From: an uncultured Anaerolinea sp.
GTDB lineage: Bacteria > Chloroflexota > Anaerolineae > JAAEKA01
Direction of reading: 5' to 3'
Assembly (NCBI GenBank): GCA_964626845.1
Contig: CAZVGR010000005.1
Location: forward strand, 36,557-100,556
Length of the DNA stretch: 64,000 nt
Shown here: positions 2,972-63,658 of the stretch, one piece after another
How positions within the stretch are numbered: the first letter of the stretch is position 1
Layout: each line of letters opens with the position of its first letter
Translations under genes and position numbers: made by a program
The notes under the pieces: generated by a model
Databases searched by the model: none
What the model saw: the letters and a program-made list of their open reading frames with translations, nothing else
What the model was told of the DNA's origin: nothing

Positions 2972-3144
2972 GGCGATCCGCGGCGCGGCTGGAAACACCG
3001 GCGGTGGGCGTGGATTACCGAGTCTCCAATCTACGTTTACCCCGGTGTTCCCAGCCGCGGCTGATGTGCCCCCGTTTCTCCACTATACGCGTCTGCTGAC
3101 GCCCCCTCCAGTGACTGCGCAGAAGGTCATCGCAGCTTGGGCAG

Positions 3145-6497: not shown

Positions 6498-8449
6498 AAC
6501 GAGCTCTCTTGGTATTCTGGCGTATGATCTTCTTGGCGATAGCATTCATCAAGGGTGAAGTAGAAGCCAGCGCCTTGGGCAGGGGCGGCGTCGGCCCAGA
6601 TTTTTCCGCCGTGGCGGTGAATGATGCGCTGGACGATGGTCAGGCCGATGCCGGTGCCAGGGAACTCAGAAGCCTTGTGCATCCGCTGGAACGGGCCGAA
6701 CAGCTTTTGGGCGTAGGCAGGATCGAAACCGGCTCCGTTATCCCGCACCACAAATGCCGGCTGGCCATCCAGGTCAACCTGGCCGAACTCGATGCGCGCC
6801 TGCGCCGTCTTGCTGGTGAACTTGAAGGCGTTGTCCAGCAGGTTACTCAGCGCAATCTCCAGCAGGTTGGCGTCGCCGATGGCGGTCAGCCCCGGCTGGA
6901 TGACGAACGTCACCTGCCGCTGCGGGGCTGATGCTTGCAGCGTGGCGGTCAGCCGTGCGGCCATGGCGCTCAGGTCGACCGGCTGGCAGCGCATCTCGGC
7001 GCGCGCCAGCCGCGCCAGGTTGAGCAGGTCGTCGATCAGCCGGGCCATGCGTTGGGTCTCGGAACGCACCCGATGCAGGTAGCTTTGCGCCTGCGGGTCA
7101 AGCTGGTCACCGTAGTCTTCCAGCAGGGCCAGGCTCCAACCGTCGATCCCGCGCAGCGGCGAGCGCAGGTCGTGCGATACCGAATAAGAGAACGCCTCTA
7201 GCTCGCGGTTGGCCGCCTCCAGTTGGCGCGTGCGCTCCCGCACCCGCTGCTCCAGCTCGGCGTTCATCTGTTGAATTCTGGCCTCTGCCAGCCGGCGTTC
7301 GGTCACATCTTCCCCGATGCTGGCGACGCCAATGACCTCGCCTTTGGTGTTGCGCAGGATGGTGTTGTTGAACCGCACCCACCGCACATCACCCGAGCGG
7401 GTCAGCAGCGGATTTTCGGCATGGGCGGGCATATCTTCGCTGCGCAGCCGGGAGAGGATGGTCTCCTTCACCTGCTGCCAGTTGGACGGCGCAAAGCGCG
7501 GGAAGTACTCCTGGCCCAGCACTTCCTCGCGCGGCCAGCCGGTCAGTTGCAGCAAGTAATCGTTGCAGAACGTGACGCGGCCCTCCAGGTCCAGCGTAAC
7601 CGCCACCAAATCTACTTGCTCCAGCAGCTCGCGGTAGCGCGCCGCGTTGAGCCGGGAAAGCGCCCAGTAGTTCTGGGCAAAAAAGACCGAGCTGAGCATC
7701 AGGGCCGAAAGAGTCAGGCTGACAGCCAGGCTCCTCTGGGCGCTGGTCGCTTCAAGGCGCCAGTGTTGCTCGGTGGGCGCAAAGAACAGGTTCAAAACCT
7801 GGGCGTCTTGCAGGTTGATACTTTCTCTGACTTCATCGCCCGCGTGGCGCTCTGTCCAGTTCTCCGACACGTAAACGGCGTTTGCTTCGTTGAGGAGCTG
7901 CACGGCGTAATCTGCCAGGAGGTCTTCGGTCAGCGGCGCGGTGAAGCTGGGCAGATCGACGATGCCCAGCACGAAGCCCTCCAGCCGGCTGCCGGTATAG
8001 ACGGGCGCCAACAGCCTGATCTGGGAGGGCAACAGGGGGATGGCGCTGGCTAACTGGCCTACCAGGCCCTCTCCTGCGGCCGTTGGCACACTGAGGCGCA
8101 GCATGTAGTCCCGGTCGATCCAATGGATGGTCTCAAGGCCCGCAAACGAGTCGATGTAAAACGCGGCGTCCTTGATCCACAACTCCTCTTTCTGGGGGGT
8201 ATCCAGCCGGCCGCGGCCGGCCAGCCGATTAACGGCGTTGACGATGCCGCGATAGCGGATCTCGGCGTCGCTGGAAAGCGCAATCGCGTTGGCTTCGGTT
8301 TTTGCGCGCAGTTGCGCGAGGTTGCTTGCCTCTTGTGCTTTCCAGACAACAATTGAAAGGGCCGTCAGACCGACCGCCAGCACAGCCAGGAAGAGATTGC
8401 TGGCCAGAAAAGGCTGGGATCTGCCAGACTGCGTGTTCGAGGGGGCCAT
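6494..8449 (-). CDS. Sensor histidine kinase with N-terminal TM + extracytoplasmic sensing domain, PAS, HisKA, HATPase
   Basis: TM LFLAVLAVGLTALSIVVW, ~230-aa periplasmic region, second TM, PAS, H-box SHDLRSPLRGI, HATPase (GTGIGLTIVQ). 22 bp downstream of the solute-binding protein gene. Confidence 0.8.
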
Positions 8450-10065: not shown

Positions 10066-10131
10066 AGGTGCCCGGCACTTGATGCGAGGTCGTCATTACG
10101 TGCGAATCGTCGCATCAAGTGCCGGGCACCT
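10066..10131. mobile_element. MITE-like palindromic element, variant subfamily (core GGTGCCCGGCACTTGATGCGA ... TCGCATCAAGTGCCGGGCACC)
   Basis: 22-bp perfect inverted arms sharing the GTGCC(C/G)GGCAC core with family 1. Related copy at 45796-45899 in opposite orientation. No clear TSD. Confidence 0.5.
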
Positions 10132-29049: not shown

Positions 29050-29112
29050 GTTACTACTCAGGTGCCGGGCACTTGCACCCCAAGTGCCCGGCACCTGGGC
29101 CTGAGTAGTAAC
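29050..29112. mobile_element. MITE-like element family 1 (63 bp, minimal copy: TIRs GTTACTACTCAGGTGCCGGGCACTTG / CAAGTGCCCGGCACCTG-GGC-CTGAGTAGTAAC) with perfect 8-bp TSD GTTACGCG
   Basis: Direct repeats GTTACGCG at 29042-29049 and 29113-29120. Lies in the divergent promoter region between the surface-giant gene and the phosphoesterase gene. Confidence 0.8.
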
Positions 29113-31464: not shown

Positions 31465-31579
31465 GTTACTTACTACTCAGCCATAGGTGCCGGGCACTGG
31501 AATCTGCGCCTGCAACGAAGTCTGTGGAGCCGATCTCAGCCGCCCATGAGCTGCAAGTGCCCGGCACCTGAGTAATAAC
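31465..31579. mobile_element. MITE-like element family 1 (115 bp), degenerate TSD (CACAGATC / CACAAAAC, 6/8)
   Basis: Ends GTTACTTACTACTCAG...CCATAGGTGCCGGGCAC and CAAGTGCCCGGCACCTGAGTAATAAC. Left arm carries a 6-nt insertion (CCATAG), as in the 57119 copy. Confidence 0.7.
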
Positions 31580-32142: not shown

Positions 32143-32982
32143 TCAGGCATGACGGGCCAGGTGGCGCGCCACCGACTCGTCCATGCTCAGCTCGCCGGCC
32201 AGCACGGGCGCCTCGTAGTCCAGCGCCCACTGGAAAAGCTGCGAGCGGGACAGGCGCAGCTCTTGCAGCATCAGGCGGGCCAGCGCGCCGCCGTCGCTCA
32301 GAAAGCCTGTATCCAGGTAGTCCTGCTCGGTCTGCTGGCGGTCATAGGCCACGCGCACGATCTCGGCCTGCCAGCCGCCGCGCCGCCAGGTGAGCCGGCC
32401 GTAGCTGGCCCGCGGGTCGCCGTCGAAGGGCATGCCCACCGCGCCCACGTTGACCACCAGCGTGCCGTCCACGCGGCGCACCAGCGGCACGTGGGTGTGG
32501 CCCACCACCAGCAGCGGCGCATGGGGCCGGCCGACCTGCACGCGCAGCACGTGATCAGGGGTTTCGGGGAAGACGCCGTCGCGTGTGCCGCGCATCGAGG
32601 CATGGACGACGCGCGCCTCGCTGCCGTCGGGCGCCAGAAGGGTCTGGCTGAAGGGCAATGCGTACAGCGTGGCCATCTGGCCGTTGAGCCGTTGGTAGGT
32701 CCAGTAGGAGCTCTGGAAGATCTCGAAGCGCGGGCCGCTGCGCGCAGCTTCCGGCTGGGCCTGATGCAGCACATATTCTTCGTGGTTGCCCAGCAGCAGC
32801 CGCCAGCCGGCCGCGCGCTGCCGCTCCTCGACCAAACGCAGGCACTCGTCTGGCCGCGGCCCGCGGTTGACGGTATCGCCAGCCACCACGACGGCGTCTG
32901 GCCGCCACGCGTCGATGCTCTCCAACACAGCGAGCAGCGCGGGCAAGTTAGCATGGATGTCGGCAAGAACGGCAAGTTTCAT
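32143..32982 (-). CDS. Metallophosphoesterase (ApaH/YfcE-like phosphoesterase family)
   Basis: [21 protein letters not shown] motifs. Confidence 0.8.
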
Positions 32983-33244
32983 GGTTGGCGCTGAATCAAA
33001 GAGACGAGCGGCCTGGCAGGGCCGCTCGCATGATCAAACGGTTAGGGCGAGTATAGCGCGTTGGGGAGAGATGTCAAGCCTCAGGGACTGTTTGAAAAGC
33101 CCCGGACCGGTGGTTGGAAACCGACCGGCTGACAGCACAAAGGCCCCTCAGGGCCTGGAATCCAGCGGCTGAGGCCGCTTCGTACTTTCAGCCAGATGGT
33201 TTCAACCTCTGATTCCGATGCTGCCGGGCTTTTCAAACAGCTTC

Positions 33245-33760
33245 TTAGGGCTGGCGCACCTCGGCCTCGACCGTCAACGTGGCGCCGCTGGCAAATTGGA
33301 GCGTCAGCGGGAACTTGTCGCCCACGTTCAGGTCGCGGGTCAGGCCGATCAGCATGACGTGCAGGCCGCCGGGCCGCAGCTCGACCTGGCCGCCGGCCGG
33401 CACCTCGATGCCGCCCTGGACCTCGGCCATGCGCATCACGTCCCCTTCCATCTTTGTCTCGTGGATCTCGATGGCGTTGGACACATCCGCCTGGGCAGCC
33501 ACCAGCCGGTCGGCCGCGGCGCTGCCGTTGGCCAGCACCATGTAGACCGCGCTGTTGGCGCCGCCGTGCTGCATCTGCTGGCTGTCGCCCTCCATCGGCA
33601 TGCTGCCCATCATCTTGGCCGGCCTGGCCCAGACGTTCTGGGCGGTGACGCCCTGGCTGGCCGCCGGCGCCGGCGGCGGCTGGGTGCAGGCTGTGGCCGC
33701 CAGCAACAGGACCATGATTGCTGCCAGCAGCAAGTAGACGCGTGCGTTGCGATACTGCAT
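33245..33760 (-). CDS. Periplasmic copper chaperone PCu(A)C-like lipoprotein (DUF461)
   Basis: Lipobox LLAATAC. Conserved H-x-M-rich copper site IEIHETKMEGDVMRMAE. Met/His-rich insert GSMPMEGDSQQMQHGG. Confidence 0.7.
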   Translation of the reverse strand: MQYRNARVYLLLAAIMVLLLAATACTQPPPAPAASQGVTAQNVWARPAKMMGSMPMEGDSQQMQHGGANSAVYMVLANGSAAADRLVAAQADVSNAIEIHETKMEGDVMRMAEVQGGIEVPAGGQVELRPGGLHVMLIGLTRDLNVGDKFPLTLQFASGATLTVEAEVRQP

Positions 33761-33772
33761 AGTGGTTCTCCT

Positions 33773-34318
33773 CTAGAAGTGCATGGATGTGCGGACAAAG
33801 GCCAGCGCCCCGTCCAAATCGACTATCTCACCGCCGAAACCAGCCTGAAAGCGCTGGGCGTCAGCCAGAGCCTCGAAGGCCAGCACGGTGGGCGTGCAAC
33901 AGATGGCAATCTCCGGCGCAGCCAGGTAGGCGGCGCTGCGTCCGTTGACGGTCCGGCCAAAGAGAAAATCGGTCACCAGGATGCTGGTAATCGCCTCGGC
34001 GCTGCGGGCCAGCGCCATCAAGCCGCAGTGGGGACAGCAAGCCAGGCGCTGGCTGCCATCGCTCCAGTGCAGGACGACCTGAGTGCGCGGGTTGAGCGAG
34101 CCATAACAGGCCAGGCAGCGCTCGCCGGCCGGCGCTGGCTCTGCGGGCACGGCGCCGCCGCGCACCTTGCGCAGCCGGCCGGCCTGGGCCAGTTGGTCCA
34201 GATCGCGGTGGATGGTCATGGTCGACACACCTAGCGTGTGAGCCAGATCGTCGATGCCAACCGCTCCCTGGTCGGCCAAGCGATCCAGAATATGGCGTTG
34301 ACGGTGGTCAGGGTTCAT
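33773..34318 (-). CDS. DeoR-type HTH transcriptional regulator fused to a C-terminal TRASH-like metal-binding domain (C-x2-C-x22-C-x3-C)
   Basis: Likely start ATG 34318 (MNPDHRQRHILDRLADQG...). The track's GTG at 34348 adds 10 aa. HTH GIDDLAHTLGVSTMTIHRDLDQL. TRASH-like CLACYGSLNPRTQVVLHWSDGSQRLACCPHCG. Confidence 0.65.
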   Translation of the reverse strand: MNPDHRQRHILDRLADQGAVGIDDLAHTLGVSTMTIHRDLDQLAQAGRLRKVRGGAVPAEPAPAGERCLACYGSLNPRTQVVLHWSDGSQRLACCPHCGLMALARSAEAITSILVTDFLFGRTVNGRSAAYLAAPEIAICCTPTVLAFEALADAQRFQAGFGGEIVDLDGALAFVRTSMHF

Positions 34319-34360
34319 GGGTTGTGCGATTCCATGTGATATCAACACAGATTTCGCAAC

Positions 34361-35281
34361 TTATAACACAAAGCGCTTCTGGGTGTCAAATAGCACGGCG
34401 TCCACGAAGGTCCAGAACGCGTTGGTGGCTGGTGAATGGGCGACCTGAGAGTCGTCGACCAGGTAGAGCCAGCGCTTCATAGCCACCCCCTCGATCTCCA
34501 CAATCTTGAGCTTGCCCACAGGCAGATGGCGCTGCACCGTGACCCTGGGCACAAAACTGAGCCCAATGTGCTCCTCCACCGCCATCAGGATCGCCTCTGA
34601 GTTGTCCAACACCAGCACAACTTCCATGCGGTCGAAATCGACTCCCACCTGGTCCAGCGTCTCGACCAGAGTCATTTGGGTGCCTGAGGACATCTCCCGC
34701 AGCACAAAGCGCTCCTGATAGAGCTCGCGCGGCGCGATCGAGGCGCGTGCGGCCCAGGGATGGTCGGCCGGCGCCACCAGGACGATCTCGTCCTCGAAGA
34801 AGCGGCGAAAATGCAGGCCCGCGCGCTGGACGCGATCGCTGGTCACAGCTACGTCGACGACGCCGGCGTGCAGCCAGTCCAGCACCTGGCTGCGCGCGCC
34901 CACCTTGACTGCCGCGCGCACCAAGGGATAGCGCTGGCGGTAGCGGGCCAAAATACCAGGCACCAGATACTTGCCCGACGACGTGGAACAGCCCAGGGTA
35001 AGATGGCCCGCCACCTCGCCGGCCAGCGCGTGCGCAGCCTCTTCTACCTGGCGGCAGTTGCGGATCAGGTCCTGCACCAGCGGCAGCAACACCTCGCCGG
35101 CCGGGCTGAGGCTGATACGACGGCCATTGCGCTCGAAAAGCGCCACGCCCAACGACTGCTCCAGCCCCTGGATGTGCTGGCTGACGGCCGGTTGGCTCAT
35201 GTGCAAGCGCTGGGCGGAGCGGGTGAAGTTCTCGGTTTCGGCTGCGATGGTGAAGATTTGCAGGCTTTCTAAATCAAGCAT
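34361..35281 (-). CDS. LysR-family transcriptional regulator
   Basis: N-terminal HTH LESLQIFTIAAETENFTRSAQRLHMSQPAVSQHIQGLEQSLGVALFER, plus C-terminal substrate-binding fold. Divergent from the rhodanese/cytochrome operon. Confidence 0.85.
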   Translation of the reverse strand: MLDLESLQIFTIAAETENFTRSAQRLHMSQPAVSQHIQGLEQSLGVALFERNGRRISLSPAGEVLLPLVQDLIRNCRQVEEAAHALAGEVAGHLTLGCSTSSGKYLVPGILARYRQRYPLVRAAVKVGARSQVLDWLHAGVVDVAVTSDRVQRAGLHFRRFFEDEIVLVAPADHPWAARASIAPRELYQERFVLREMSSGTQMTLVETLDQVGVDFDRMEVVLVLDNSEAILMAVEEHIGLSFVPRVTVQRHLPVGKLKIVEIEGVAMKRWLYLVDDSQVAHSPATNAFWTFVDAVLFDTQKRFVL

Positions 35282-35299: not shown

Positions 35300-35411
35300 G
35301 TTACTCTACTCAGGTGCCGGGCACTTGCAGCTCATGTGCGGCTTGAATAGGTTCGGCAGACATCGCTGCAAACGTAGATTCAAGTGCCCGGCACCATAGC
35401 TGAGTAGCAAC
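35300..35411. mobile_element. MITE-like element family 1 (112 bp) with perfect 8-bp TSD CTCTGTGA, inserted in the LysR/cytochrome-operon divergent promoter region
   Basis: Ends GTTACTCTACTCAGGTGCCGGGCACTTG ... CAAGTGCCCGGCACCATAGCTGAGTAGCAAC. TSD at 35292-35299 and 35412-35419. Confidence 0.8.
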
Positions 35412-35440: not shown

Positions 35441-35457
35441 TATCAGAGACTCTGATA
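35441..35457. promoter_or_regulatory. Perfect 17-bp palindrome TATCAGAG-A-CTCTGATA (contains a T-N11-A LysR-type box) in AT-rich promoter region
   Basis: Read directly. Lies ~90 bp upstream of the operon start (35550), between the divergent LysR gene and the operon. Confidence 0.45.
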
Positions 35458-35549
35458 ATAAAACATGATCTATATCATACGCTTTTATCAAAAATCCTGG
35501 TATGATTGGGCCGTTGCAGACTATACTCAAGGTTTCTCAGGAGGAGACT

Positions 35550-37556
35550 ATGTCTCGTTTGCGTGTTCTACCAATCCTATCGATCCTGCTGATCCTGGCG
35601 CTGCTGGTTGCAGGCTGCGGCCAGCAAGCCACGCCAGAGCCGACGCCCGTCCCGCCGACAGCTACCCCCGTGCCGCCGACGGCCACGCCGGTCCCGCCCA
35701 CGGCCACCCCTGTGCCGCCCACGGCTACGCCGGTGCCGCCAACACCCACGCCTGTACCGCCCACGCCAACCCCCGAACCGGAACCAGAGTCGGGCGTGTT
35801 GGATGATGCCATGGCCTTCTTTGGCGCTGGCGTGAAGTTGATCTCGGCTGACGCCCTCTACGAGAACCTCAACGACGGCGACGCCAGCAACGATCCCTTC
35901 ATCATCTCATTGCGCTCGGCCGAACATGACGCCGTAGGCCAGATCCCAGGCGCCTACAACATCAGCGTCAAGGAGCTGATGTCACCCGAGGTGCTGGCCA
36001 CCCTGCCCACCGACCGGCAGATCGTCGTCTACTGCTACACCGGCCAGAACTCAGCCCAGGCCGTGACAGCGCTGAACATGGCCGGCTTCGACGCAGCCAG
36101 CCTCACCTATGGCATGAGCGGCTGGACCACCGATCCGGCGGTCTATGTCAACCGCTTCAACGCAGAAACGACCCCGCGCCAGTTCGCAACCTTCACCGAC
36201 ATGCCGGAATGGAGCGACGAGACCTTCGCGCTGGCCACGCCATTGGCCGAGACCAGCGCCGAGGCCGCCTACGCCTACCTGAGCGCCAACGGCGCCAAGA
36301 TGATCGCGGCCGATGCGGTGTACGAGAACCTCAACGACGGCGACGCCAGCAACGACCCCTTCATCATCTCGGTGCGGGCCCAGGAAGACTACGCCAAGGG
36401 ACACCTGCCTGGCGCGCTGTGGACGACGCCCAAGGACCTGTTCACCCCTGAGATGCTGGCCAAGCTGCCCACCGACCGCCAGATCCTGGTCTACTGCTAC
36501 ACCGGCCAGAACTCCGGCTTCGTGGTGGCGGGTCTGAACATGCTGGGCTACGATGCCATCAGCCTGACCCACGGCATGAGCGGCTGGACCGACGATCCGG
36601 ATGTCTTCGTTCGCCGCTTCAACGCCGAGACGACGCCGCGCAACTTCCCCACCGAGGCTGGCGCCGTGCGCTCGCTGGCTGCCGGCTCGGACGGCGACCT
36701 GGCCACGGCCGCAGATGCTTACTTCAGCGGCGGCCCGAAGACTATCACCGCCGACGCGCTGTTCGAGATCCTCAACGACGGCGACGACAGCAACGACCCG
36801 ACGATCATCTCGGTGCGCAAGGCTGAGGATTTCGCTAAGGGCCACCTCCCTGGCGCGATCAACCTGACCCACGCCCAGCTCTTCACGCCCGATGTGCTGG
36901 CGACGATCCCGCAGGACAAACCGGTGGTGGTCTACTGCTACACCGGCCAGACGGCCAGCCAGGCAGTCTCGGTGCTGAACATGCTGGGCTACGACGCCCG
37001 CAACCTGGTCTTCGGCATGAGCGGCTGGACGACAGACCCTGAGGTCTACGTGACCCGCTTCGACCCCACCAAGGCCAACGACTTCCGAACGACCACGGAA
37101 GGCTTTGAGGCTGAGGGCGAGTACGACCTGCCCGAGCCGCTGGCGGCCACCGTGCTGGATGCAGCAGCGGTCTACTTCGGTGCAGGGCTGAAGACAATCC
37201 AGGCGCCGGCGTTGTACGAAAATCTGAACGACGGCGACGAGAGCAACGATCCCTACATCATCTCGGTGCGTTCGGCAGAGCACTACGCACTGGGCCATTT
37301 GCCAGGCGCAGTCTGGTACGACGCCAAGGCGCTGTTCACGCCAGACAGCCTGAGCACCCTGCCCAACGACCGCCCCATTGTGGTCTACTGCTATACCGGC
37401 CAGACCGCCAGCCAGGTGACTTCGGTGCTCAATCTGTTGGGCTACGATGCCAGCAACCTGGTGTTTGGTATGGGCAACTGGACCAACGATCCTGCGGTCT
37501 ACGTCAATCGCTTCAACCCGGAGACGACCCCGCGCGACTTTCCGGTTGAGAAATAG
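35550..37556 (+). CDS. Lipoprotein with four tandem rhodanese (sulfurtransferase) domains, each retaining the catalytic Cys (CYTGQ)
   Basis: Start MSRLRVLPILSILLILALLVAGC with strong RBS AGGAGG (the track ORF starts 48 nt earlier). PT-rich linker (TATPVPP x4). Four repeats ending ...VVYCYTGQNSAQ / LVYCYTGQNSGF / VVYCYTGQTASQ / VVYCYTGQTASQ. Confidence 0.85.
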   Translation: MSRLRVLPILSILLILALLVAGCGQQATPEPTPVPPTATPVPPTATPVPPTATPVPPTATPVPPTPTPVPPTPTPEPEPESGVLDDAMAFFGAGVKLISADALYENLNDGDASNDPFIISLRSAEHDAVGQIPGAYNISVKELMSPEVLATLPTDRQIVVYCYTGQNSAQAVTALNMAGFDAASLTYGMSGWTTDPAVYVNRFNAETTPRQFATFTDMPEWSDETFALATPLAETSAEAAYAYLSANGAKMIAADAVYENLNDGDASNDPFIISVRAQEDYAKGHLPGALWTTPKDLFTPEMLAKLPTDRQILVYCYTGQNSGFVVAGLNMLGYDAISLTHGMSGWTDDPDVFVRRFNAETTPRNFPTEAGAVRSLAAGSDGDLATAADAYFSGGPKTITADALFEILNDGDDSNDPTIISVRKAEDFAKGHLPGAINLTHAQLFTPDVLATIPQDKPVVVYCYTGQTASQAVSVLNMLGYDARNLVFGMSGWTTDPEVYVTRFDPTKANDFRTTTEGFEAEGEYDLPEPLAATVLDAAAVYFGAGLKTIQAPALYENLNDGDESNDPYIISVRSAEHYALGHLPGAVWYDAKALFTPDSLSTLPNDRPIVVYCYTGQTASQVTSVLNLLGYDASNLVFGMGNWTNDPAVYVNRFNPETTPRDFPVEK

Positions 37557-37681
37557 TCGATCTTCCCCTGCTGGTCAGCGCTGCCAAGGCGCTGACCAGG
37601 CGCACACGTGGGTGACTCTGCCTGCCTCACCAGCCAATGGTGAGGCAGGCAAGTCCCTTTTTTGGAAAGGAGCCCCCTGAA

Positions 37682-38035
37682 ATGCAGATAAAGGCGAAAC
37701 GACGCTGGCTGTGGGGGTTGGCGGCCATCGCTGTGGTGCTGATTGGCGTCGCCATTTTCCAGCCGGCCTTTGGCGGCGAGCAAGCGGCCCTCCCTGCGGT
37801 GGATGCCGTGGCGGCGCTGCCTGCGGTCGATCTGGTCCAGGCCGAGCCTGCCCCGGCCGAAGTTCAGCCGGCTGAACCATCGTCGTCCGTGGAACTAAGC
37901 GATCACGAGGCGCCGGTTGCGCAGACGCCGTCGTCCGACAACTGCATCGCCTGCCACACCAACCAGGCCCTGCTCCAGCAACTGGCCGTCGAGCCAGAAA
38001 AGGTCAAGTCGGAGCTGGCCGGCGGCGAGGGCTGA
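37682..38035 (+). CDS. Membrane-anchored monoheme c-type cytochrome (possibly the N-terminal part of the following decaheme gene, see findings)
   Basis: RBS GGAAAGGAG. MQIKAKRRWLWGLAAIAVVLIGVAIF (TM/signal anchor), CIACH. In the same frame as the next ORF, separated by a single TGA. Confidence 0.6.
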   Translation: MQIKAKRRWLWGLAAIAVVLIGVAIFQPAFGGEQAALPAVDAVAALPAVDLVQAEPAPAEVQPAEPSSSVELSDHEAPVAQTPSSDNCIACHTNQALLQQLAVEPEKVKSELAGGEG

Positions 38036-38044
38036 GCTGGCGAG

Positions 38045-39151
38045 TTGCCTCCGTTGGAGGCATGGCAAAAGGTCCTGGTGAGCGAAAAGTTCCTGACGGA
38101 CGACGTACACAGCAAGCCTGGCTGCATCGCCTGTCACGGCGGCACGCCTGGCGTGGTCGACAAGGAACAGGCCCATACCGGGATGTACAAGCTGGCAGCA
38201 GCGAACCCAGACCGCGCTTGCGGCGGCTGCCACGTGGCCGTCGTCGACCAGGCGCAGACCAGCTCGCATCGCCTGCTGCCCGGCTATCTGACCGTCATGT
38301 CGGAGCGCGGCGCAGACTTCACGATGCCAGAAACGGTGCGGGCCTACACCACCCATTGCACCAAGTGCCACGCGACCTGCGGCGACTGCCACATCAGCCG
38401 GCCCCAGGCGCTGGACGGCGGCCTGATCGATGGACACGTGGTCAAGCGAGTGGCCTCGGTGTTCACTACCTGCGGCGGCTGTCATAGCGCGCGCATCGCC
38501 GACGAATACAGGGGCGCCCATGAGGGCATCCCGGCTGATGTCCACTGGCAAAAGGCAGGTATGCCCTGCACCCGCTGCCACACCATGGAGGAGTTCCACG
38601 AGGGCCAACACGGCACGCGCTACGACTCCGAACCCAGCGTAGACTGCATCGACTGCCACCAGGAAGATGTGCAACTGGGCGGCGACAACTTGCAGCACAC
38701 CATCCACACCAACACTGTGCAGTGCCACGTTTGCCACTCAGCCGGCGAGTACAAGTCCTGCTTCACCTGCCACACCGGCGAGGACGACAAGGGCATTCCC
38801 TACTACACCACCGAGCCATCGCAGATGACCTTCAAAATCGGCCGCAACCCGATCCAGAGCGAGAGCCGGCCCTGGAACTACGTGCTGCTGCGCCATGCGC
38901 CCACCAATCCCGACCTGTGGGCCTTCTACGGCGACGACCTGCTGCCGACCTTCGACAACCTGCCCACATGGAAGGCGACGACGCCGCATAACATCCAGAA
39001 GATCACGCCACAAAACGCTACCTGCAATAGTTGCCACGGCCAGGAGGAGTTGTTCCTCACCGAAGCCGATGTGGCGCCCGACCTGCTGGAGGCCAATCGT
39101 CGTGTGATCGTGACCAGGATCCCGCGTACGCTGCCGGAGGTCGAGCCATGA
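38045..39151 (+). CDS. Decaheme c-type cytochrome (10 CXXCH), no own signal peptide
   Basis: TTG-start ORF. CIACH, CGGCH, CTKCH, CGDCH, CGGCH, CTRCH, CIDCH, CHVCH, CFTCH, CNSCH. Stop overlaps the next start (ATGA). Confidence 0.7.
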   Translation: MPPLEAWQKVLVSEKFLTDDVHSKPGCIACHGGTPGVVDKEQAHTGMYKLAAANPDRACGGCHVAVVDQAQTSSHRLLPGYLTVMSERGADFTMPETVRAYTTHCTKCHATCGDCHISRPQALDGGLIDGHVVKRVASVFTTCGGCHSARIADEYRGAHEGIPADVHWQKAGMPCTRCHTMEEFHEGQHGTRYDSEPSVDCIDCHQEDVQLGGDNLQHTIHTNTVQCHVCHSAGEYKSCFTCHTGEDDKGIPYYTTEPSQMTFKIGRNPIQSESRPWNYVLLRHAPTNPDLWAFYGDDLLPTFDNLPTWKATTPHNIQKITPQNATCNSCHGQEELFLTEADVAPDLLEANRRVIVTRIPRTLPEVEP

Positions 39152-40284
39152 CCACACGCACCTACGCGGCTGGGATGATCGTTGTCCTGGCAACCCTCGC
39201 TCTGGCCGGCCTGCTCTTTGCGGCGCAGCCAGCCAAAGCTCAGGAGACTCCCCCGCTCCCTGGCAGCGCCAATCCGGACAACGTCGCCTGCCTTGCCTGC
39301 CACCGGCAGGAGGGGCTGCACCTGGTGTTCCCATCGGGCGAAGCGCTGCCAGTCACTATGGACGCCACAGAGCTGCTCGGATCGGTCCACGCTACGTTGG
39401 CCTGCCAGGACTGTCACACCGACATCGCCGGCTACCCCCACGGCGCGCCGCCAGCCAACGACCATCGCGATCTGCAGATCCACTACAGCCATAGCTGCGC
39501 CAACTGCCATGACCAGCAGGCCATGCAAGAGGTCGACAGCATCCATGCCCAGCTTCAGGCCTCCGGCATGAGAGAAGCCGCCGTCTGCGCCGACTGCCAC
39601 GGCAGCCACAACATCCAGCCGATCGACCGGGACAAGCACCCCGAGGTGTCGCCTACGGCCTCGGCCGAGATCTGTGCGCAGTGCCACAGCGGCATTTATA
39701 ACCAGTTCGCCGACAGCGTGCATGGCGAGGCGTTGATCTCCGGCAACCCCGACGTGCCGACCTGCATCACCTGCCACCCCGCGCACACCGCTACCGATCC
39801 GCGCACGCTGGCCTTCCGCCTGCAATCGCCGGAGATGTGCGGCGAGTGCCACGCCGACCAGGCGCTGATGGCCAAGTACGGCATCTCCACCGAGGTGTTC
39901 GACACCTACGTGGCCGATTTTCACGGCACCACAGTAATGCTGTTCGAGAAGACCCATCCTGGCCAGCCCACCAACAAGGCCGTCTGCATCGACTGCCACG
40001 GCGTGCATGACATCGCCCCGGCTACGCGCGACAGCGAGCTGATCCAGGCCAACATCCTGCCCCGCTGCCAGGAATGCCATCCCGACGCGTCGATCAACTT
40101 CGCGGCCAGTTGGCTGGGCCACTACGCCCCTAACTTCGAGACTGCGCCCTTAGTGACCACAGTGACCTGGTTCTACCGCATCCTGATCCCGCTGGTGATC
40201 GGGTTCTTTGTGGTCTACGTCGGCCTCGACGCCTATCGCCACATCATGGACCGGCGCGAGCGCCGCAAGGAGGTGAAAGCATGA
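39148..40284 (+). CDS. Nonaheme c-type cytochrome with N-terminal signal peptide and C-terminal TM anchor
   Basis: Start MTTRTYAAGMIVVLATLALAGLLFAAQPAKAQE. CLACH, CQDCH, CANCH, CADCH, CAQCH, CITCH, CGECH, CIDCH, CQECH. C-term helix WFYRILIPLVIGFFVVYVGL. ATGA overlap with both neighbours. Confidence 0.85.
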   Translation: MTTRTYAAGMIVVLATLALAGLLFAAQPAKAQETPPLPGSANPDNVACLACHRQEGLHLVFPSGEALPVTMDATELLGSVHATLACQDCHTDIAGYPHGAPPANDHRDLQIHYSHSCANCHDQQAMQEVDSIHAQLQASGMREAAVCADCHGSHNIQPIDRDKHPEVSPTASAEICAQCHSGIYNQFADSVHGEALISGNPDVPTCITCHPAHTATDPRTLAFRLQSPEMCGECHADQALMAKYGISTEVFDTYVADFHGTTVMLFEKTHPGQPTNKAVCIDCHGVHDIAPATRDSELIQANILPRCQECHPDASINFAASWLGHYAPNFETAPLVTTVTWFYRILIPLVIGFFVVYVGLDAYRHIMDRRERRKEVKA

Positions 40285-41378
40285 GCGAAAGCACGCAACG
40301 CTACCTGCGTTTCCTGGTCAGCGACCGGGTGCTGCACCTGCTGCTGCTGATCTCCTTCACGGCGCTGGCCATCACTGGCCTGGTACAGAAGTATGCCGAT
40401 TTTGGCATCTCAGTAACGCTGATCCGGGCTATGGGCGGCATCGAACAGACGCGCGTCTTCCACCACACCTTCGCGGTGGTGCTGATCCTGACCAGCATCG
40501 CCCATGCGGTGCAGGTCGGCTACCGCGTCTACGTGCAGCGCAAATCGATGAGCATGCTGCCAACCCTGCGCGACGTAACCGACTTCGTGGCTGCGGTCAA
40601 ATACAACGCCGGGCTGAGCAAGCAACGGCCTCACTTCCCCCGCTTTAACTTCATGGAGAAGGTCGAGTACTGGGCGGTGGTATGGGGCACGGTGCTGATG
40701 ACCATCACCGGCTACGTGCTGTGGAATCCGGTGTTGATCACCCAGTACCTGCCGGGCGAAGTGGTGCCAGCGGCCAAGATCGCTCACGGCCTGGAGGCGG
40801 TGCTGGCGGTGTTGTCGATCTTGATCTGGCACGCCTACTACGTCCATGTTAAGGTCTTCAACAAGAGCATGTTCACCGGCTATCTGACCGAAGAGGAGAT
40901 GGAGGAAGAACATCCCGCCGAGTTGGAGAAGATTCGCCACGGCAAAGTCTGGCATCCGCCGGCTCCAGAAGTACGCTATAGCCGCATCAAGCTCTATGCG
41001 CCTTTGGCAACGCTCTTTGTGTTGGTATCGGTGCTGGGCACCTGGCGCTGGCTGACGGCCGAAACGACAGCCATCACCACCGTGCCGCGCGCTGTGGTGG
41101 AACAGGCGGCCTATCAACCGGTGCTGCCCACCCCGCGCACGGTCAGGCTGGAGGCGACACCCGCGCCCACGCCGCTCAGCGTGCTGGCTGTCAGCGACCT
41201 GGCCAGCCAGCCGCCGGCCGAGGCGCCGTTGATCCCCCACGCCATCGGCGGGGAGCGCTCGCAGTGCCTGGTTTGTCACGACGTCTACAGCATGATCAAG
41301 CCAGCGCCGCGCGACCATGCCGGCTTGACTGAAGATACCTGCCAGACCTGCCACAGCCCGCAAGGAGAGACGCCATGA
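40281..41378 (+). CDS. Dihaem cytochrome b (FdnI/HydC/HyaC-type, 4-5 TM, quinone-reactive) fused to a C-terminal dihaem c domain (CbcL-like)
   Basis: TM helices with conserved His (HLLLLISF, FHHTFAVVLIL, IAHGLEAVLAVLSILIWHAYYVH). C-term CLVCH and CQTCH. ATGA overlap with both neighbours. Confidence 0.8.
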   Translation: MSESTQRYLRFLVSDRVLHLLLLISFTALAITGLVQKYADFGISVTLIRAMGGIEQTRVFHHTFAVVLILTSIAHAVQVGYRVYVQRKSMSMLPTLRDVTDFVAAVKYNAGLSKQRPHFPRFNFMEKVEYWAVVWGTVLMTITGYVLWNPVLITQYLPGEVVPAAKIAHGLEAVLAVLSILIWHAYYVHVKVFNKSMFTGYLTEEEMEEEHPAELEKIRHGKVWHPPAPEVRYSRIKLYAPLATLFVLVSVLGTWRWLTAETTAITTVPRAVVEQAAYQPVLPTPRTVRLEATPAPTPLSVLAVSDLASQPPAEAPLIPHAIGGERSQCLVCHDVYSMIKPAPRDHAGLTEDTCQTCHSPQGETP

Positions 41379-43054
41379 CTCCCCATGCACGCCCCCATCT
41401 GGCTGGCTGGGCCGTCCTGGCGTTCTTCTGCCTGCTGGCCCTGGCTCTAGGGCCGCAGCCTGCCCACGCCCAGCCGCCTGAGCCGCACCAATTCATGCAG
41501 GACTACAAAGGCCCGGTCACTTGCCGGATCTGTCACGGCGACGTAGCCGACCAGGTGATCCACAGCGTCCACTACACGTGGGAGCAGAAGATGGATCACT
41601 ATAGCCCGGTGGCCGGCAGCATTGCCCGCATCAACTGGCTGGGGATGCTCAACGAGACCCTCAACATCCCCGGCGGCTGCGGCCGCTGCCACGTGGGCAG
41701 CGGCGCGTTGCCTGTGTCCCCTGACCAGGCGACCACCGCCGACAAGAACGGCATCGACTGCCTGATCTGCCACTCGCCAGTTTACGACACCAGCCTGCGC
41801 TTCCCGGTGCAGGACGAAAACGGCAACTGGACGTTGACCCAGGATCGCAACGTGCTGACCGCGCGCCAGGCGCAGCGCCCCACCACCGAGAACTGCCTGT
41901 TCTGCCACCAAAACGTGGGCGGCGGGCCGATGCTCAAGCGCGGGGTGGACTTCGCGCCCATCGAGGACAAGCACGGCGAAGACAGCAAGGCCGATGTCCA
42001 CGCCAGCGCCGGCCTGACCTGCGTTGACTGCCACGCCTCGCAGGACCACAAGATCATGGGCTTTGCGCCCGACATCTGGAGCCGCGACCTGCCCGACCAG
42101 CGCCTGACCTGCGATAGCTGCCACACCTCCGCGCCGCACGCCGATCCGCTGCTCAACGTGCAGCACGCGCGGCTGGATTGCCGTACCTGTCACGTGGAGG
42201 GAACCGGCGGGCTGGTCAGCCGCGACTGGACTGCGCCGCCAGTCTACGATCCGATCACCGAGCTGTATGCGCCGGTGGACGACCTGCGCGCGCCCAACTC
42301 GGTGCAGCCAGTCTATATGTGGCACAACGGCCAGCCGGCGCTGCCAGGCGAACCCTGGCCCGGCAGCCGCTCCGACCTGACGTCGCGCATCCAACCCTTC
42401 AAGCTGTTCCAGGCCACTGCGCCGGTGGACGCCAGCAGCAGCGAACCAATCCCGCTCAAGCTGGGCATCTTCTACACGCAGGGCGACCTGGAGCAGGCCA
42501 TCCGGGTTGGCGCGGCCGAGTCGGGCATGGCCTACAGCGGGTCATGGCAGACCGGCCAGCTCGACGCGCCTTTGCAGATCAGCCACGGCGTGGTGGGAGC
42601 GCAGTATGCCCGCCAGTGCCAGGACTGCCACGTGCCGGACGGCATCATCGACTTCGCCAACATGGGCTACACGCCGCAGGAAGTGGCCGTGTTGAGCACC
42701 ATCAGCTCAGAAAGCGCCGGTCAGCGCCAGCCCTTGCAGATGTCGGTAGTGATCCCGGCCGCGCAGCCGCTGCCCACACCAGTGCTGCTGTCAGGCAACC
42801 TGGAGGCTGCGCGCGGCTTCGGCGTTCAGATCCCGTGGAACCCGTTCCTGGTACTGCTGGCCTCGATCGCCATCGTCGCCGGCGGCGGTTACTGGCTCTA
42901 CCGCCAGAAGCCGGTCGCTGCGCCGCCGCCGGTGCAGACCGCAACGGCAGGAGCACCCGCAACGCCAACACCCGAGGCTACCGCGGCGCAGGACACGCCA
43001 GATGAGGCTGCGGCGGAGCAATCCGCAGTTGAACGATCTACCGGAAGCGACTAA
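41375..43054 (+). CDS. Octaheme c-type cytochrome with signal peptide and C-terminal TM anchor + Pro/Ala/Thr-rich tail
   Basis: Signal AVLAFFCLLALALGPQPAHA. CRICH, CGRCH, CLICH, CLFCH, CVDCH, CDSCH, CRTCH, CQDCH. TM LVLLASIAIVAGGGYWLY. Confidence 0.85.
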   Translation: MTPHARPHLAGWAVLAFFCLLALALGPQPAHAQPPEPHQFMQDYKGPVTCRICHGDVADQVIHSVHYTWEQKMDHYSPVAGSIARINWLGMLNETLNIPGGCGRCHVGSGALPVSPDQATTADKNGIDCLICHSPVYDTSLRFPVQDENGNWTLTQDRNVLTARQAQRPTTENCLFCHQNVGGGPMLKRGVDFAPIEDKHGEDSKADVHASAGLTCVDCHASQDHKIMGFAPDIWSRDLPDQRLTCDSCHTSAPHADPLLNVQHARLDCRTCHVEGTGGLVSRDWTAPPVYDPITELYAPVDDLRAPNSVQPVYMWHNGQPALPGEPWPGSRSDLTSRIQPFKLFQATAPVDASSSEPIPLKLGIFYTQGDLEQAIRVGAAESGMAYSGSWQTGQLDAPLQISHGVVGAQYARQCQDCHVPDGIIDFANMGYTPQEVAVLSTISSESAGQRQPLQMSVVIPAAQPLPTPVLLSGNLEAARGFGVQIPWNPFLVLLASIAIVAGGGYWLYRQKPVAAPPPVQTATAGAPATPTPEATAAQDTPDEAAAEQSAVERSTGSD

Positions 43055-45795: not shown

Positions 45796-45899
45796 CGTAA
45801 ACAAATTAACTGCGTATCGGTGCCCGGCACTTTGGCGACGATTCGCACATGATCAGAGGCTCGTGTCAAGTGCCGGGCACCTCAACAACTTTGTTTACG
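45796..45899. mobile_element. MITE-like element, variant subfamily (outer TIR CGTAAACAAA, inner palindromic core GGTGCCCGGCAC...GTGCCGGGCACC)
   Basis: Outer 10-bp inverted repeat CGTAAACAAA / TTTGTTTACG. Core and adjacent segments homologous to the copy at 10066-10131 in opposite orientation. No TSD seen. Confidence 0.5.
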
Positions 45900-49439: not shown

Positions 49440-52034
49440 TCAAGACAGGTCGCCGTTGACAGTCGACGGATCTGGGGTAAACAGGCTGGGCTGGGCGGCG
49501 CCAGACTGGGCCTTCTCCGGCCAGACGGCGCCGATATGCTCGTAAGCCAGCCGCGTGGCGGCGCGGCCGCGCGGCGTGCGGTCCAGGAAGCCCAGTTGCA
49601 GCAGATACGGCTCGACCACGTCCATGATGGTGCCCGAGTCCTCGCTCAGCGCCGCAGCGATGGTCTCCAGCCCCACCGGCCCGCCGTCGAACTTCTCCAC
49701 CAGCAGGCGCAGCACCTTGCGGTCCAGGTCGTCCAGGCCCAGCGCGTCGATCTCCATCAGGCGCAGGGCCTGGTCGGCTGTCTCGGCCGTGATCACGCCG
49801 TCGCCGCGCACCTGGACGTAGTCCCGCACGCGGCGCAGCAGGCGCAGGGCCACACGCGGCGTGCCGCGGGCCCGGCGGGCGATCTCGCTGGCGCCGTCGT
49901 CGCTGATGGTCACCTGCAAGAGCGCGGCCGCGCGGCGCACGATCTCCTCCAGCGCGGCCTGCTCGTAGAAGTCGAAGCGGTAAATGGCGCCGAAGCGCGA
50001 GCGCAGCGGCGCAGTCAGCAGGGCCAGCCGCGTCGTCGCGCCGATCACCGTGAAGCGGGGCAGCTTGAGGCGGATCGAGCGCGCGCTGGGGCCTTTGCCG
50101 ATGACGATATCCAGCGCGAAGTCCTCCATGGCCGGGTAGAGGATCTCCTCCACGGCCCGGCCCAGGCGGTGGACCTCGTCGATGAAGAGGATGTCGCCCT
50201 TGTGCAGGTTAGTCAGGATCGCCGCCAGATCGCCGGCCCGCTCGATAGCCGGCCCGGCCGTCGTCTTCATGGCTACGCCCATCTCGTTGGCCAGGACGTG
50301 GGCTAGCGTCGTGTTGTGATTGAAGAATCCGTTGGCTACAAATGAATGGCTACCAGGAACGACGAAATCATAGGTCGCTGCGAAGCCTTCCTCAATCTGC
50401 TTCACGCGATCCCAATAAATAGCCGGATCTGTCAACGAACATAGCGTTTGGTACTCCGGAGTTTCCTGAATCCAGGGCGGCAGAAGTTCGAGGTAGCGTT
50501 GAATCTGTTGTCGCGTTGGAGTTCGATCGTTGCGACTCGCATGGCTAAACGCCTTATGAGTCGAATGTGGGTGAGGCCCTGATAGATGAAGCAAGGAGCG
50601 TAGACTAGAGTTCGAACATGGAACGAGTTCACTCCGACTCCAGCCGCCTGTTCGCATCCTTAGGCCCTCTGCTCGGTCCCGCTTACGGCCTAGACGAAAA
50701 CTGACAATATCGTGATAGCGCTCGGCGTCGATTCCACCAACGAAGAGTGTCCAGTAGTCTACGGCTTTGATTCTCTTCCGGTTACGGCTAGCAATAATGC
50801 CAAGGTTGGCTAGAAGCAACTGCACTTGTTGGGCGAGTTGTTTTGAGCGCGTACCATATTCTACATAACCTTCTGGCCAGACATTTCCATCAGCATCAAA
50901 CAAGCCTTGCAAGAATCCGATAGCTGTCGAGCGCTCTCCTGATAACACGCTGGCAGGCACCACCTTGTTGGACGCGAGTTCAGCCTTCATCCCTAAGGCA
51001 AGCATGAGATGCCCGATTGTCTGACTGAAACGCAACTGCGGCGCCCTGTCGCCGTACTGTCGTATTTCAGGAGCTTGGCCGAATAGTCTCTGTGCAATCC
51101 GCTGCAATTCAACCTGTATCTCAGGCTCGCTGCAGGTGATAACAAAGGCGGGGGAATTCTGTCCGCGTTCGAAGTGACCATCTCCAACTAGCATTCCCAT
51201 CACGTAAGCCAAGTCCGCGTCAAGATCGATTACGCGAGCTCTGTTGTCGACAAGTTCAGTGGTAAAGCGCCACGGCGAAGCTTCCACGTCAACTGATCGC
51301 CCATCAGTTAGCGAGAGACCCAATCGTTTGGCTGCTACTTCCGGCGTTGGATTCTTGCTGGCTGCACCCATGTAAGCGTGTCTCAGTTCAATGGCTGCGG
51401 GAGGTCTTCCCAGACCATTGACCAAATCTTCGTAGATGTGGCGGATCCTGCAATCCGTCCAAGCGCGTCGCATGCTAGATGCGTCTGGCTGCCAAGATGC
51501 AGACTGCGGTTGACCCCACTGGTTCATGCCGCGACCGATAGCCACATAATCTTCAGTGGAAATCTCTTCAAGGCGTTTCCATTGGGGACCGCTTGGCGTG
51601 GCAACCAACAAGGCATGGTTTGGCGTGCCTTCGATTTCGAAGCCCGCTTTGGTGATGATGCGACGTGTCGTTCCGTGACCACTAGCATAGACGTATGAAG
51701 TCGTTTCGATGCCGTTGAGACCATAGACCAAGGTGCGACAAGGCACGTAAGTATCTGGTGCGAGGGTGTCTGGAATGAACGAATCGAAGGACTTCCATCC
51801 CTGCTCGGTCAGAATGAGCGAGGTGGCAGTGATGCACTTGCCCAGTCCGGGCGGACCATACAAGAGCACATGATCCAGCGACTCGCTGCGTTGCTGGGCG
51901 GCCTGTAAGAGGATCTCCAGGTTGTCGCGCAGGCGGTCCTGGCCGATCATCTCGGCCAGGCGCTTGGGGCGCAGGGCGGCGTCCAGCGCGGCTTCTTCGG
52001 GGCGTTTGCGGGCGGAAACGGTGCGGTCGTCCAT
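49440..52034 (-). CDS. ruvB: Holliday-junction branch-migration ATPase RuvB interrupted by a ~508-aa intein in the Walker-A P-loop
   Basis: N-extein ...[11 protein letters not shown]-extein [13 protein letters not shown]...FIDEVHRL...[14 protein letters not shown] (RuvB sensor/winged-helix regions). 864 aa total vs ~340 for typical RuvB. Confidence 0.9.
50313..51836 (-). other. Intein with LAGLIDADG homing-endonuclease domain inserted between GLGK and TT of the RuvB P-loop
   Basis: Cys1 ([13 protein letters not shown]), C-terminal ...VANGFFNHN followed by +1 Thr. LAGLIDADG motifs [14 protein letters not shown] and [14 protein letters not shown]. Visibly lower GC (~50%) than the flanking extein DNA. 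Confidence 0.8.
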
Positions 52035-54400: not shown

Positions 54401-54477
<77 letters not shown>

Positions 54478-57118: not shown

Positions 57119-57229
57119 CGTTACTACTCAGGCATAGGCGCCGGGCACTTGAATCTGCGCCTGCAAGGATGTCTGCCGAGCTTATTCACGCTATGCAGGG
57201 GCTGCAAGTGCCCGGCACCTGAGTTGTAA
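57119..57229. mobile_element. MITE-like element family 1 (111 bp) with perfect 8-bp TSD CTGGCTGC
   Basis: Ends GTTACTACTCAGGCATAGGCGCCGGGCACTTG ... CAAGTGCCCGGCACCTGAGTTGTAAC. TSD at 57111-57118 and 57230-57237. Confidence 0.8.
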
Positions 57230-63546: not shown

Positions 63547-63658
63547 ATTACTACTCAGGTCCAGGTGCCGGGCACTTGCATTTGCGCCTACTAACGAAGT
63601 CTATGAAGCCGATTTTAGCCGTCAATGAACTGCAAGTGCCCGGCACCTGAGTAGCTAC
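63547..63658. mobile_element. MITE-like element family 1 (112 bp) with perfect 8-bp TSD GTTGCATG
   Basis: Ends ATTACTACTCAGGTCCAGGTGCCGGGCACTTG ... CAAGTGCCCGGCACCTGAGTAGCTAC. TSD at 63539-63546 and 63659-63666. Confidence 0.8.

Follow-up and report, generated by a model that had tools for sequence, protein, structure and literature searches.

In Bacillus subtilis, the copper-dependent repressor YcnK binds to DNA upstream of ycnKJI, an operon which is up in copper starvation and down in copper-replete cells (PMC8424229, PMC12154828, PMC13344008). A delta-ycnK mutant acts like a copper over-importer (PMC13344008). Few bacterial regulators are known to turn on copper acquisition and not efflux, and YcnK is among these. 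The locus described here lies in a stretch of 64,000 nucleotides (nt) from an uncultured Anaerolinea sp. of the phylum Chloroflexota, termed the window; all coordinates are those of the window. Its minus strand displays a gene pair, a regulator of 181 amino acids (aa) and, 12 nt further on, a PCuAC copper chaperone of 171 aa. The pair is read as an autoregulated two-gene operon that encodes a YcnK-family copper-sensing repressor together with its target, a lipoprotein PCuAC chaperone, and that is derepressed by copper scarcity. The probability of this reading is put at roughly 0.65.

Several other described systems are close to parts of this locus. NosL is an exported lipoprotein that donates Cu to N2O reductase. 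Archaeal regulators that join a winged helix-turn-helix (wHTH) to a TRASH domain control efflux (copA). CopY of Enterococcus and Lactococcus is a small winged-helix repressor with a C-terminal Cys cluster that binds Cu(I) and switches DNA binding. PCuAC proteins of the PcuC type carry extra Met/His-rich segments which bind additional copper. To our knowledge, the open literature gives no account of how copper is bound by the YcnK sensor domain.

The new elements are modest, i.e. a Chloroflexota member of the family, PCuAC as the usual target, a predicted operator and a residue-level proposal for the metal site. The locus offers a handle on the rationing of copper to respiratory enzymes in an under-studied phylum; current understanding is not overturned.

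The regulator is a YcnK family member

The regulator gene is at positions 33773–34318 on the minus strand, with its ATG at 34318 and a TAG stop codon at 33773–33775. The translated sequence displays a DeoR-type winged helix-turn-helix (HTH) at aa positions 6–58 (nt 34145–34303, minus strand), where Pfam HTH_DeoR (PF08220) matches with an E-value of 4.8e-14 and 52.3 bits against a cutoff of 21. An AlphaFold2 (AF2) model has helices at positions 3–17, 22–29 and 33–45, followed by a beta-wing. There is no Pfam match to DeoRC, the effector domain of the classical DeoR/GlpR regulators, and of the NCBIfam DeoR-type models (~250 aa) only the first 56–70 positions match the regulator, all far below cutoff. 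A GTG at 34348 was considered as the start codon and rejected, as homologues have their N-termini in line with the ATG at 34318, and the GTG is within the operator/leader.

The closest described relative is B. subtilis YcnK. A YcnK sequence served as a search query only; it retrieved protein P0121 at 88% identity, and all YcnK comparisons were made with the retrieved protein. P0121 stands for a 262-member cluster of proteins that bear the name [quoted passage not shown]. The regulator is 36% identical to P0121 from end to end, i.e. over 174 of its 181 aa (E-value = 3e-38), with all cysteines in register. YcnK is of similar length (190 aa), it also consists of a DeoR-type HTH and a Cys-rich NosL-like domain, and all seven Cys and the His align. 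Like ycnK, the window gene is the first gene of an operon for extracytoplasmic copper-handling proteins. Unlike YcnK, which targets ycnJ (CopC-CopD-YtkA) and ycnI (DUF1775), the window regulator is predicted to target PCuAC; it is from Chloroflexota and not Bacillota, and it lacks a C-terminal CxC tail.

A search of 5.8 billion proteins gave 278 homologues of ~180–200 aa. Those with an organism name are Chloroflexota metagenome bins, and several bear the JGI name [quoted passage not shown]. This wording is the database (KEGG) name of B. subtilis YcnK. The architecture is already characterized. A first-pass annotation of the window, which was made from the sequence without database searches, had taken it to be uncharacterized; it is the architecture of YcnK, the repressor of ycnKJI (PMC8424229, PMC13344008). 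With a DeoR-type HTH, full-length homology, a C-terminal NosL-like Cys domain and linkage to copper genes, the regulator is, as judged from sequence, a member of the YcnK family, a family already known and annotated in public databases.

The Cys motif of the regulator is C68-LA-C71-x22-C94-C95-P-H97-C98, i.e. C-x2-C-x22-C-x3-C. This TRASH-type motif spans aa positions 68–98 (nt 34025–34117, minus strand) and is in the first treble-clef lobe of the sensor domain. A Cys140-Cys141 pair is found in the second lobe (nt 33896–33901, minus strand). An alignment of 58 homologues, drawn from both phyla and reaching down to 28% identity, shows no variation at C68, C71, C94, C95, H97, C98, C140 and C141. 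The motif is therefore under selection and does not represent a chance pattern. Loss of the Cys cluster in orthologues had been raised earlier as a possible objection to a copper role, and no such loss is seen in these 58 sequences. The conserved set of putative metal ligands is seven Cys and one His, which is more than a Cys4 cluster.

The PCuAC gene and the operon layout

The PCuAC gene is at positions 33245–33760 on the minus strand. Residues 62–164 of the translated sequence match PF04314 with an E-value of 1.7e-35 (121.7 bits against a cutoff of 29.4), and orthologues adjoin the regulator in related genomes. The 12 nt spacer between the two genes, AGGAGAACCACT (33761–33772, minus strand), has a Shine-Dalgarno sequence for the PCuAC ATG, which indicates that regulator and PCuAC are co-transcribed. 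Here the first-pass annotation holds up well. The sequence features that it described, i.e. the DeoR HTH, the Cys spacing, the 12 nt gap, the PCuAC and its Met/His-rich insert, are all present, and its description of a copper module formed by a one-component metal-sensing regulator and a co-transcribed PCuAC agrees with the present results.

The PCuAC protein appears to be extracytoplasmic and lipid-anchored. It starts with a hydrophobic N-terminal signal that extends to a lipobox Cys25 (LLLAATA-C; 33686–33760, minus strand), and the Cys column is kept in the alignment of homologues as LLSAC, LAGC or VAC. This PCuAC alignment was built from tblastn segments. The putative Cu(I) ligand motif, H100-x10-M111-x22-H134-x-M136 (33353–33463, minus strand), has columns that are kept in 31 PCuAC sequences. 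It conforms to H(M)-x10-M-x21-H-x-M, with the second spacer longer by one residue.

The Met/His-rich insert, AKMMGSMPMEGDSQQMQHGG, is found at residues 48–67 (33560–33619, minus strand), with the WARP strand before it and the conserved ANSAVYM strand after it. It is common only to the closest PCuAC relatives (loci L001, L002, L003, L006, L015, L029, L053 and L054), where its length varies, and most other aligned PCuACs are without it. The window protein shares the strong Pfam match, the H-x10-M-x21/22-H-x-M motif and export with the described PCuACs, e.g. Thermus TtPCuAC, Rhodobacter PccA and Bradyrhizobium PcuC. Unlike these, its Met/His-rich segment is an internal N-terminal loop and not a C-terminal tail. 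In addition it is lipid-anchored, is under a dedicated YcnK-type regulator and is not located in a cox, sco or nos cluster.

A near-perfect hairpin of ~170 nt, unique in the window, is present at positions 33079–33249 and overlaps the PCuAC stop codon. The predicted RNA minimum free energy is −87.5 kcal/mol (z = −6.6). Its terminal inverted repeats, CTGTTTGAAAAGCCC, are found only here, with CCCTAAG and CCCTGAG at the flanks. In L001, the closest genome, the PCuAC stop codon is directly followed by GGCTTGACA, thus the hairpin has the look of an insertion similar to a miniature inverted-repeat transposable element. No Rfam match was found for this hairpin or for the 33004–33077 leader of the neighboring metallophosphoesterase gene; the Rfam scan of the whole window gave only a tRNA at 54401–54474.

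Promoter and predicted operator

A promoter is predicted upstream of the regulator on the minus strand. The −35 box, TTGACA (34384–34389), is within the upstream LysR gene, at its 3′ end. A spacer of 17 nt (34383–34367) separates it from the −10 box, TTATAA (34361–34366), which overlaps both the LysR stop codon (34361–34363) and the left half-site of the predicted operator. The −10 box was missed by the consensus scanner, which demands T at hexamer position 6. The predicted operator is an inverted repeat, TGTTATA-N20-TATCACA (34335–34368, minus strand). The left half-site, TGTTATA (34368–34362), begins 50 nt before the ATG and the right half-site, TATCACA (34341–34335), begins 23 nt before it; the two are 27 nt apart, start to start.

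The assignment of these elements is based on sequence, on half-site counts and on a layout that is conserved in related loci. The 7-mer TGTKATA/TATMACA has five copies on both strands of the 64-kb window, two of which are the operator pair. Related regulator genes have 6.4 half-sites per kb in their 120 nt of upstream sequence, compared with 0.14 per kb in the remainder of the loci, a difference of ~45-fold. Upstream regions in Chloroflexota display TTGACA, ~17 nt, TGTTATA(T) and then an inverted (A)TATAACA, in many loci 27 or 37 nt on when counted start to start, and the TTGACA is ~17 nt upstream of the left half-site in at least 12 related loci.

We infer that the operon is transcribed from the TTGACA-N17-TTATAA promoter in the LysR 3′ end. 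The predicted operator lies across the start region and the −10 box, an arrangement expected of a repressor, and together with the 12 nt gap between the genes it predicts two genes in one autoregulated operon. That the LysR gene upstream is co-transcribed with them was also considered and is judged unlikely, as a conserved promoter is present at the LysR 3′ end and the LysR gene is kept only in L002 and L006.

Gene linkage in related genomes

The Cys-rich NosL-like domain is not a rare one. A search of 1.84 billion cluster representatives gave 309 matches to it at E ≤ 1e-10, and with the threshold relaxed to E ≤ 1e-3 there were 814. Most of the matching proteins are ~180–200 aa long and have the domain in the C-terminal two-thirds. 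Many of the 309 representatives are in Chloroflexota, and the YcnK family reaches well beyond Bacillota.

A scan of one genome per species produced 67 loci with full-length relatives of the regulator. Chloroflexota (Anaerolineae, Caldilineales, Ardenticatenales, Herpetosiphon and Chloroflexia) account for 45 of these; the remaining loci are from Bacillota, from Desulfuromonadales and relatives, and from single bins labelled Aquificota and Ignavibacteria. By tblastn, PCuAC is found in the flanks of 34 of the 67 loci, including 33 of the 45 in Chloroflexota, and in the flanks of none of the Bacillota or Desulfobacterota loci. It is directly downstream on the same strand in 21 loci and divergently upstream in six. 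Loci without a PCuAC neighbor usually have another copper gene, i.e. YtkA-like, SCO1/SenC, PepSY_TM, MbnP, NosL, DsbD_2 with a cupredoxin, a P-type ATPase, or CopC-CopD with DUF1775. The Bacillus locus itself has the order ycnK-ycnJ(CopC-CopD-YtkA)-ycnI(DUF1775). A few loci have unrelated neighbors, e.g. a flagellar rod protein, an RNA methyltransferase or an EamA transporter.

Outside the closest genomes (L002, L006 and partly L001), the gene order of the window, rhodanese-LysR-regulator-PCuAC-phosphoesterase, is not kept, thus the durable unit is the regulator with a copper gene. The predicted target in Chloroflexota is usually the gene of a PCuAC chaperone, which is behind a clear, conserved predicted operator.

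Some members of the family have other arrangements. A Herpetosiphon sp. metagenome-assembled genome (L022) displays four tandem PCuAC-like segments in one long open reading frame (6599–8299) downstream of the YcnK-like gene, and a fifth PCuAC copy upstream at 3105–3548; a multi-domain PCuAC may be present there. Among proteins P0291, P0334, P0344, P0350, P0363, P0387 and P0401, some have chain lengths of 267–454 aa with two or three copies of the NosL-like domain. Others in this set are 140–170 aa long; these have the domain close to the N-terminal end and seem to be without an HTH.

Probable direction of the copper response

If the window regulator works as YcnK does in B. subtilis, a Cu-loaded regulator would occupy the operator when cytoplasmic copper is sufficient, and both genes would be off. 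When copper is scarce, the apo regulator would leave the DNA and PCuAC synthesis would rise. The Met/His-rich loop and the H/M site of PCuAC would then capture Cu(I) outside the membrane, and the captured copper would pass to CuA/CuB-type centers of enzymes encoded elsewhere in the genome. A different destination, the oxidoreductases encoded next to the operon, had been suggested in the first-pass annotation. These neighbors are multiheme cytochromes c and a cytochrome b561, and a Pfam scan of the 28 larger open reading frames of the window found no copper enzyme among them. Local copper delivery is thus unsupported, and the clients are expected to be encoded elsewhere.

The response could also run in the opposite sense, as in derepression of the CopY/CsoR style. 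Cu(I) would free the regulator from DNA, and copper excess would induce the Met-rich PCuAC as a defense that buffers or hands off extracytoplasmic Cu(I). This is considered unlikely. It draws on one relative of the regulator, at L067, that is followed by a P-type ATPase bearing a heavy-metal-associated (HMA) domain, on the fact that Met-rich loops such as residues 48–67 are typical of copper-resistance proteins (PcoC, CusF and the CopC type), and on CopY itself, where all-Cys Cu(I) clusters drive release from DNA. CopY is unrelated in fold, with a CxCx4CxC tail and no NosL fold, and its release by copper, which induces efflux, is the opposite of the reported behavior of YcnK. Against the opposite sense, copper starvation switches the ycnKJI operon on and copper-replete cells repress it (PMC12154828, PMC8424229), and the delta-ycnK phenotype resembles copper over-import (PMC13344008). 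Moreover, most partner genes of the family function in acquisition or cofactor insertion (PCuAC, Sco, YtkA, CopCD, MbnP and NosL) and not in efflux.

Some points weigh against an operon that is derepressed by copper scarcity. The direction of its copper response is taken over from Bacillus, and the CxC tail at the C-terminal end of Bacillus YcnK is not present in the window regulator. The upstream region of ycnK in the B. subtilis group (locus L082) has no TGTKATA half-site, which means that operator recognition differs from that of the inverted TGTTATA/TATCACA in the window; the Bacillus YcnK site is said to be a direct repeat. The ATPase adjoining the family member at L067 is of the CopA efflux type, and the scan of window open reading frames shows no copper enzyme that the chaperone could serve locally. 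In addition, Cu+ “is proposed to antagonize” YcnK in one paper, though a Cu-dependent repressor is described in that same paper (PMC13344008).

The sensor domain and its metal site

The Cys-rich sensor domain is at residues ~65–181 (33776–34126, minus strand). It is a full NosL fold, here in the cytoplasm, and is built of two TRASH-like treble clefs. Fold comparison gave a figure of 6.7 for NosL, ~5 for ribosomal L24e/Rlp24, 4.9 for MerB2, 4.9 for phenol hydroxylase, up to 4.4 for MYND fingers and 3.1 for an MYM-type “TRASH domain” (2das). L24e and MYND-type fingers have been grouped in the TRASH treble-clef family by Kaur and Subramanian. At the sequence level, NosL (PF05573) is the sole Pfam match to the C-terminal region of the regulator, at 14.9–16.1 bits, which is below the cutoff of 24; all 58 family members match NosL at E ≤ 1, with a best value of 3e-8. 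A single-sequence search of the PDB with the regulator found HTH proteins only, and profile searches found NosL weakly.

The first-pass annotation had described the Cys-rich region as a TRASH-type Cys4 domain. This is correct with respect to the ancestry and fold of the first lobe. Its C-x2-C-x22-C-x3-C spacing fits the TRASH signature, C-x2-C-x19-22-C-x3-C, and the isolated lobe resembles TRASH-family fingers as a treble-clef fold. It is not correct for a stand-alone TRASH domain. A check of PF08394 and the other Pfam TRASH-clan models gave no match at E ≤ 10 to the regulator, to its C-terminal half or to the 42–51 aa Cys4 segment. Among 29 homologous segments there are sub-threshold matches of the TRASH type, i.e. 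zf-FCS in two (best E-value 0.0012) and ATPase-cat_bd in four (best E-value 0.04), both of which we take to be in the TRASH clan.

Archaeal wHTH-TRASH regulators are copper-responsive, and a further alternative is that the window protein is an uncharacterized fusion of DeoR and TRASH, akin to the archaeal CopR type, which tunes copper delivery to the oxidoreductases next door. The two kinds of regulator have in common a winged-helix DNA-binding domain combined with a Cys-rich copper sensor, the C-x2-C-x19-22-C-x3-C spacing and a treble-clef lobe (CopR/CopT type; Ettema et al. 2003). The window protein differs in that its HTH is DeoR-type, in the lack of a Pfam TRASH match and in a sensor that is a duplicated TRASH-like unit, i.e. 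the NosL fold, with putative ligands from both lobes. The YcnK family also differs in that it sits with acquisition and insertion genes. Against such a fusion, the architecture is that of the studied YcnK and the domain is the full NosL fold. The neighbors are heme proteins, a rhodanese, a LysR regulator and a phosphoesterase, with no copper enzyme among the scanned open reading frames, and the LysR/rhodanese neighborhood is found only in the two closest genomes, while the PCuAC link is widespread. This alternative is very improbable and is largely refuted already.

In holo-NosL, the ligands of a Zn(II)/Cu(I) pair are C59, C62 (bridging), M64, C88, D92 and M145, the last of which is from the second lobe (PMC8457098). 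Met109 of A. cycloclastes NosL has been equated with Met145 of S. denitrificans NosL, a Cu(I) ligand (PMC8457098). A profile of YcnK-type C-terminal domains places C140 on this Met109. The CxxC of the regulator family aligns with “ECHVCGM” of P. stutzeri NosL, although weakly, as this stretch is below threshold (−2.8 bits). Residue 73 of the regulator, two positions after the second Cys and in the place of NosL M64, is a Gly.

Thus the window domain and NosL (S. denitrificans 7og7; A. cycloclastes 2hpu/2hq3) share the CxxC, the C-x3-(D/C) and the lobe-2 Met positions, where lobe 2 is from the main alignment and the CxxC is below threshold. Unlike NosL, the window domain is cytoplasmic, is fused to a DNA-binding domain and has no signal peptide. 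The identity is 16%, and the Met and Asp ligands of NosL correspond to Cys, with Cys140 at the M145 position. By analogy, the window protein would be a sensor and not a Cu donor. By alignment, the YcnK-type domain therefore resembles the site of NosL with its Met and Asp ligands exchanged for Cys. The metal site is probably all-thiolate and would bind Cu(I), possibly with an additional structural Zn. This constitutes a testable metal-site model, i.e. NosL ligand positions turned all-Cys.

The same residues can be given a function that does not involve copper sensing. The Cys/His cluster could hold a structural Zn or an Fe-S cluster, or could sense Zn, Cd, Hg, Ag or thiol oxidation, with the PCuAC link being part of a broader envelope/redox response. 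The buried ion at the equivalent CxxC...C...D residues of NosL is a structural Zn(II) (PMC8457098), treble-clef TRASH fingers are mostly Zn sites (PMC4999995), and MerB, which has the same fold, binds Hg. This possibility seems quite remote, as the family is linked almost solely to copper genes in three phyla and YcnK is copper-responsive in vivo. Furthermore, the invariant thiolates outnumber those required for a single Zn, and the extra CC pair is exactly at the position of the Cu(I)-ligand Met of NosL.

A more far-reaching proposal can be made tentatively; it is plausible but rather short of an even chance. The NosL chaperone fold may have been re-used in the cytoplasm as an all-thiolate binuclear switch (Cu2 or Zn/Cu) that bridges both lobes, where the metal would lock the lobes and thus set DNA affinity. 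In Chloroflexota such a switch would directly set the supply of a PCuAC with a Met-rich loop, and cytosolic copper would in this way control a chaperone outside the membrane. We know of no description of such a metal site or of such a regulon.

Neighboring genes and other sequence features

The LysR gene upstream of the operon is at 34361–35281 (minus strand), and a four-domain rhodanese protein is encoded at 35502–37556. L002 and L006 display the same LysR-rhodanese pair in synteny. In the window, a perfect palindrome, TATCAGAG-C-CTCTGATA, is found at 35441–35457, in the stretch from which the two genes diverge. This is of the T-N11-A type and is plausible as a LysR box.

On the other side of the operon is a metallophosphoesterase gene (32143–32982, minus strand), which has its own conserved promoter. 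Its leader (33004–33077, minus strand) displays a promoter close to consensus, TTGACA-N16-TATACT (11 of 12 positions), and after it a GC-rich hairpin of 10 bp and then a T-rich run, CTCTTTGATT. The promoter and hairpin are kept in L001 and L003, and the sequence may be an attenuator or regulatory leader.

Multiheme c-type cytochromes (Cytochrome_C7, MtrC/MtrF-like, with paired CXXCH) and a cytochrome b561-type membrane protein are encoded at 37637–43054 on the plus strand. This cluster may be an extracellular or periplasmic electron-transfer module.

Intergenic palindromes that resemble repetitive extragenic palindromic (REP) sequences, with arms GGTGCCGGGCACTT and AAGTGCCCGGCACC, are present as seven pairs in the window, where 0.08 chance matches are expected. 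The copies are at 10067–10130, 29061–29095, 31486–31568, 35313–35395, 45819–45881, 57137–57219 and 63564–63647, and one of them is just upstream of the LysR gene.

A transporter of the major facilitator superfamily is also near the operon. Farther off are housekeeping genes, the gene of a RuvB with an intein and numerous genes for hybrid histidine kinases. The RuvB gene (49440–52034, minus strand) is split by an intein with a LAGLIDADG homing-endonuclease domain, and the lowest G+C content of the window (0.567) is found there. Positions 1618–23230 (minus strand) encode six large hybrid histidine kinases/sensors (PAS/GAF/PocR/7TM), together with a PocR-HTH regulator and a solute-binding protein.

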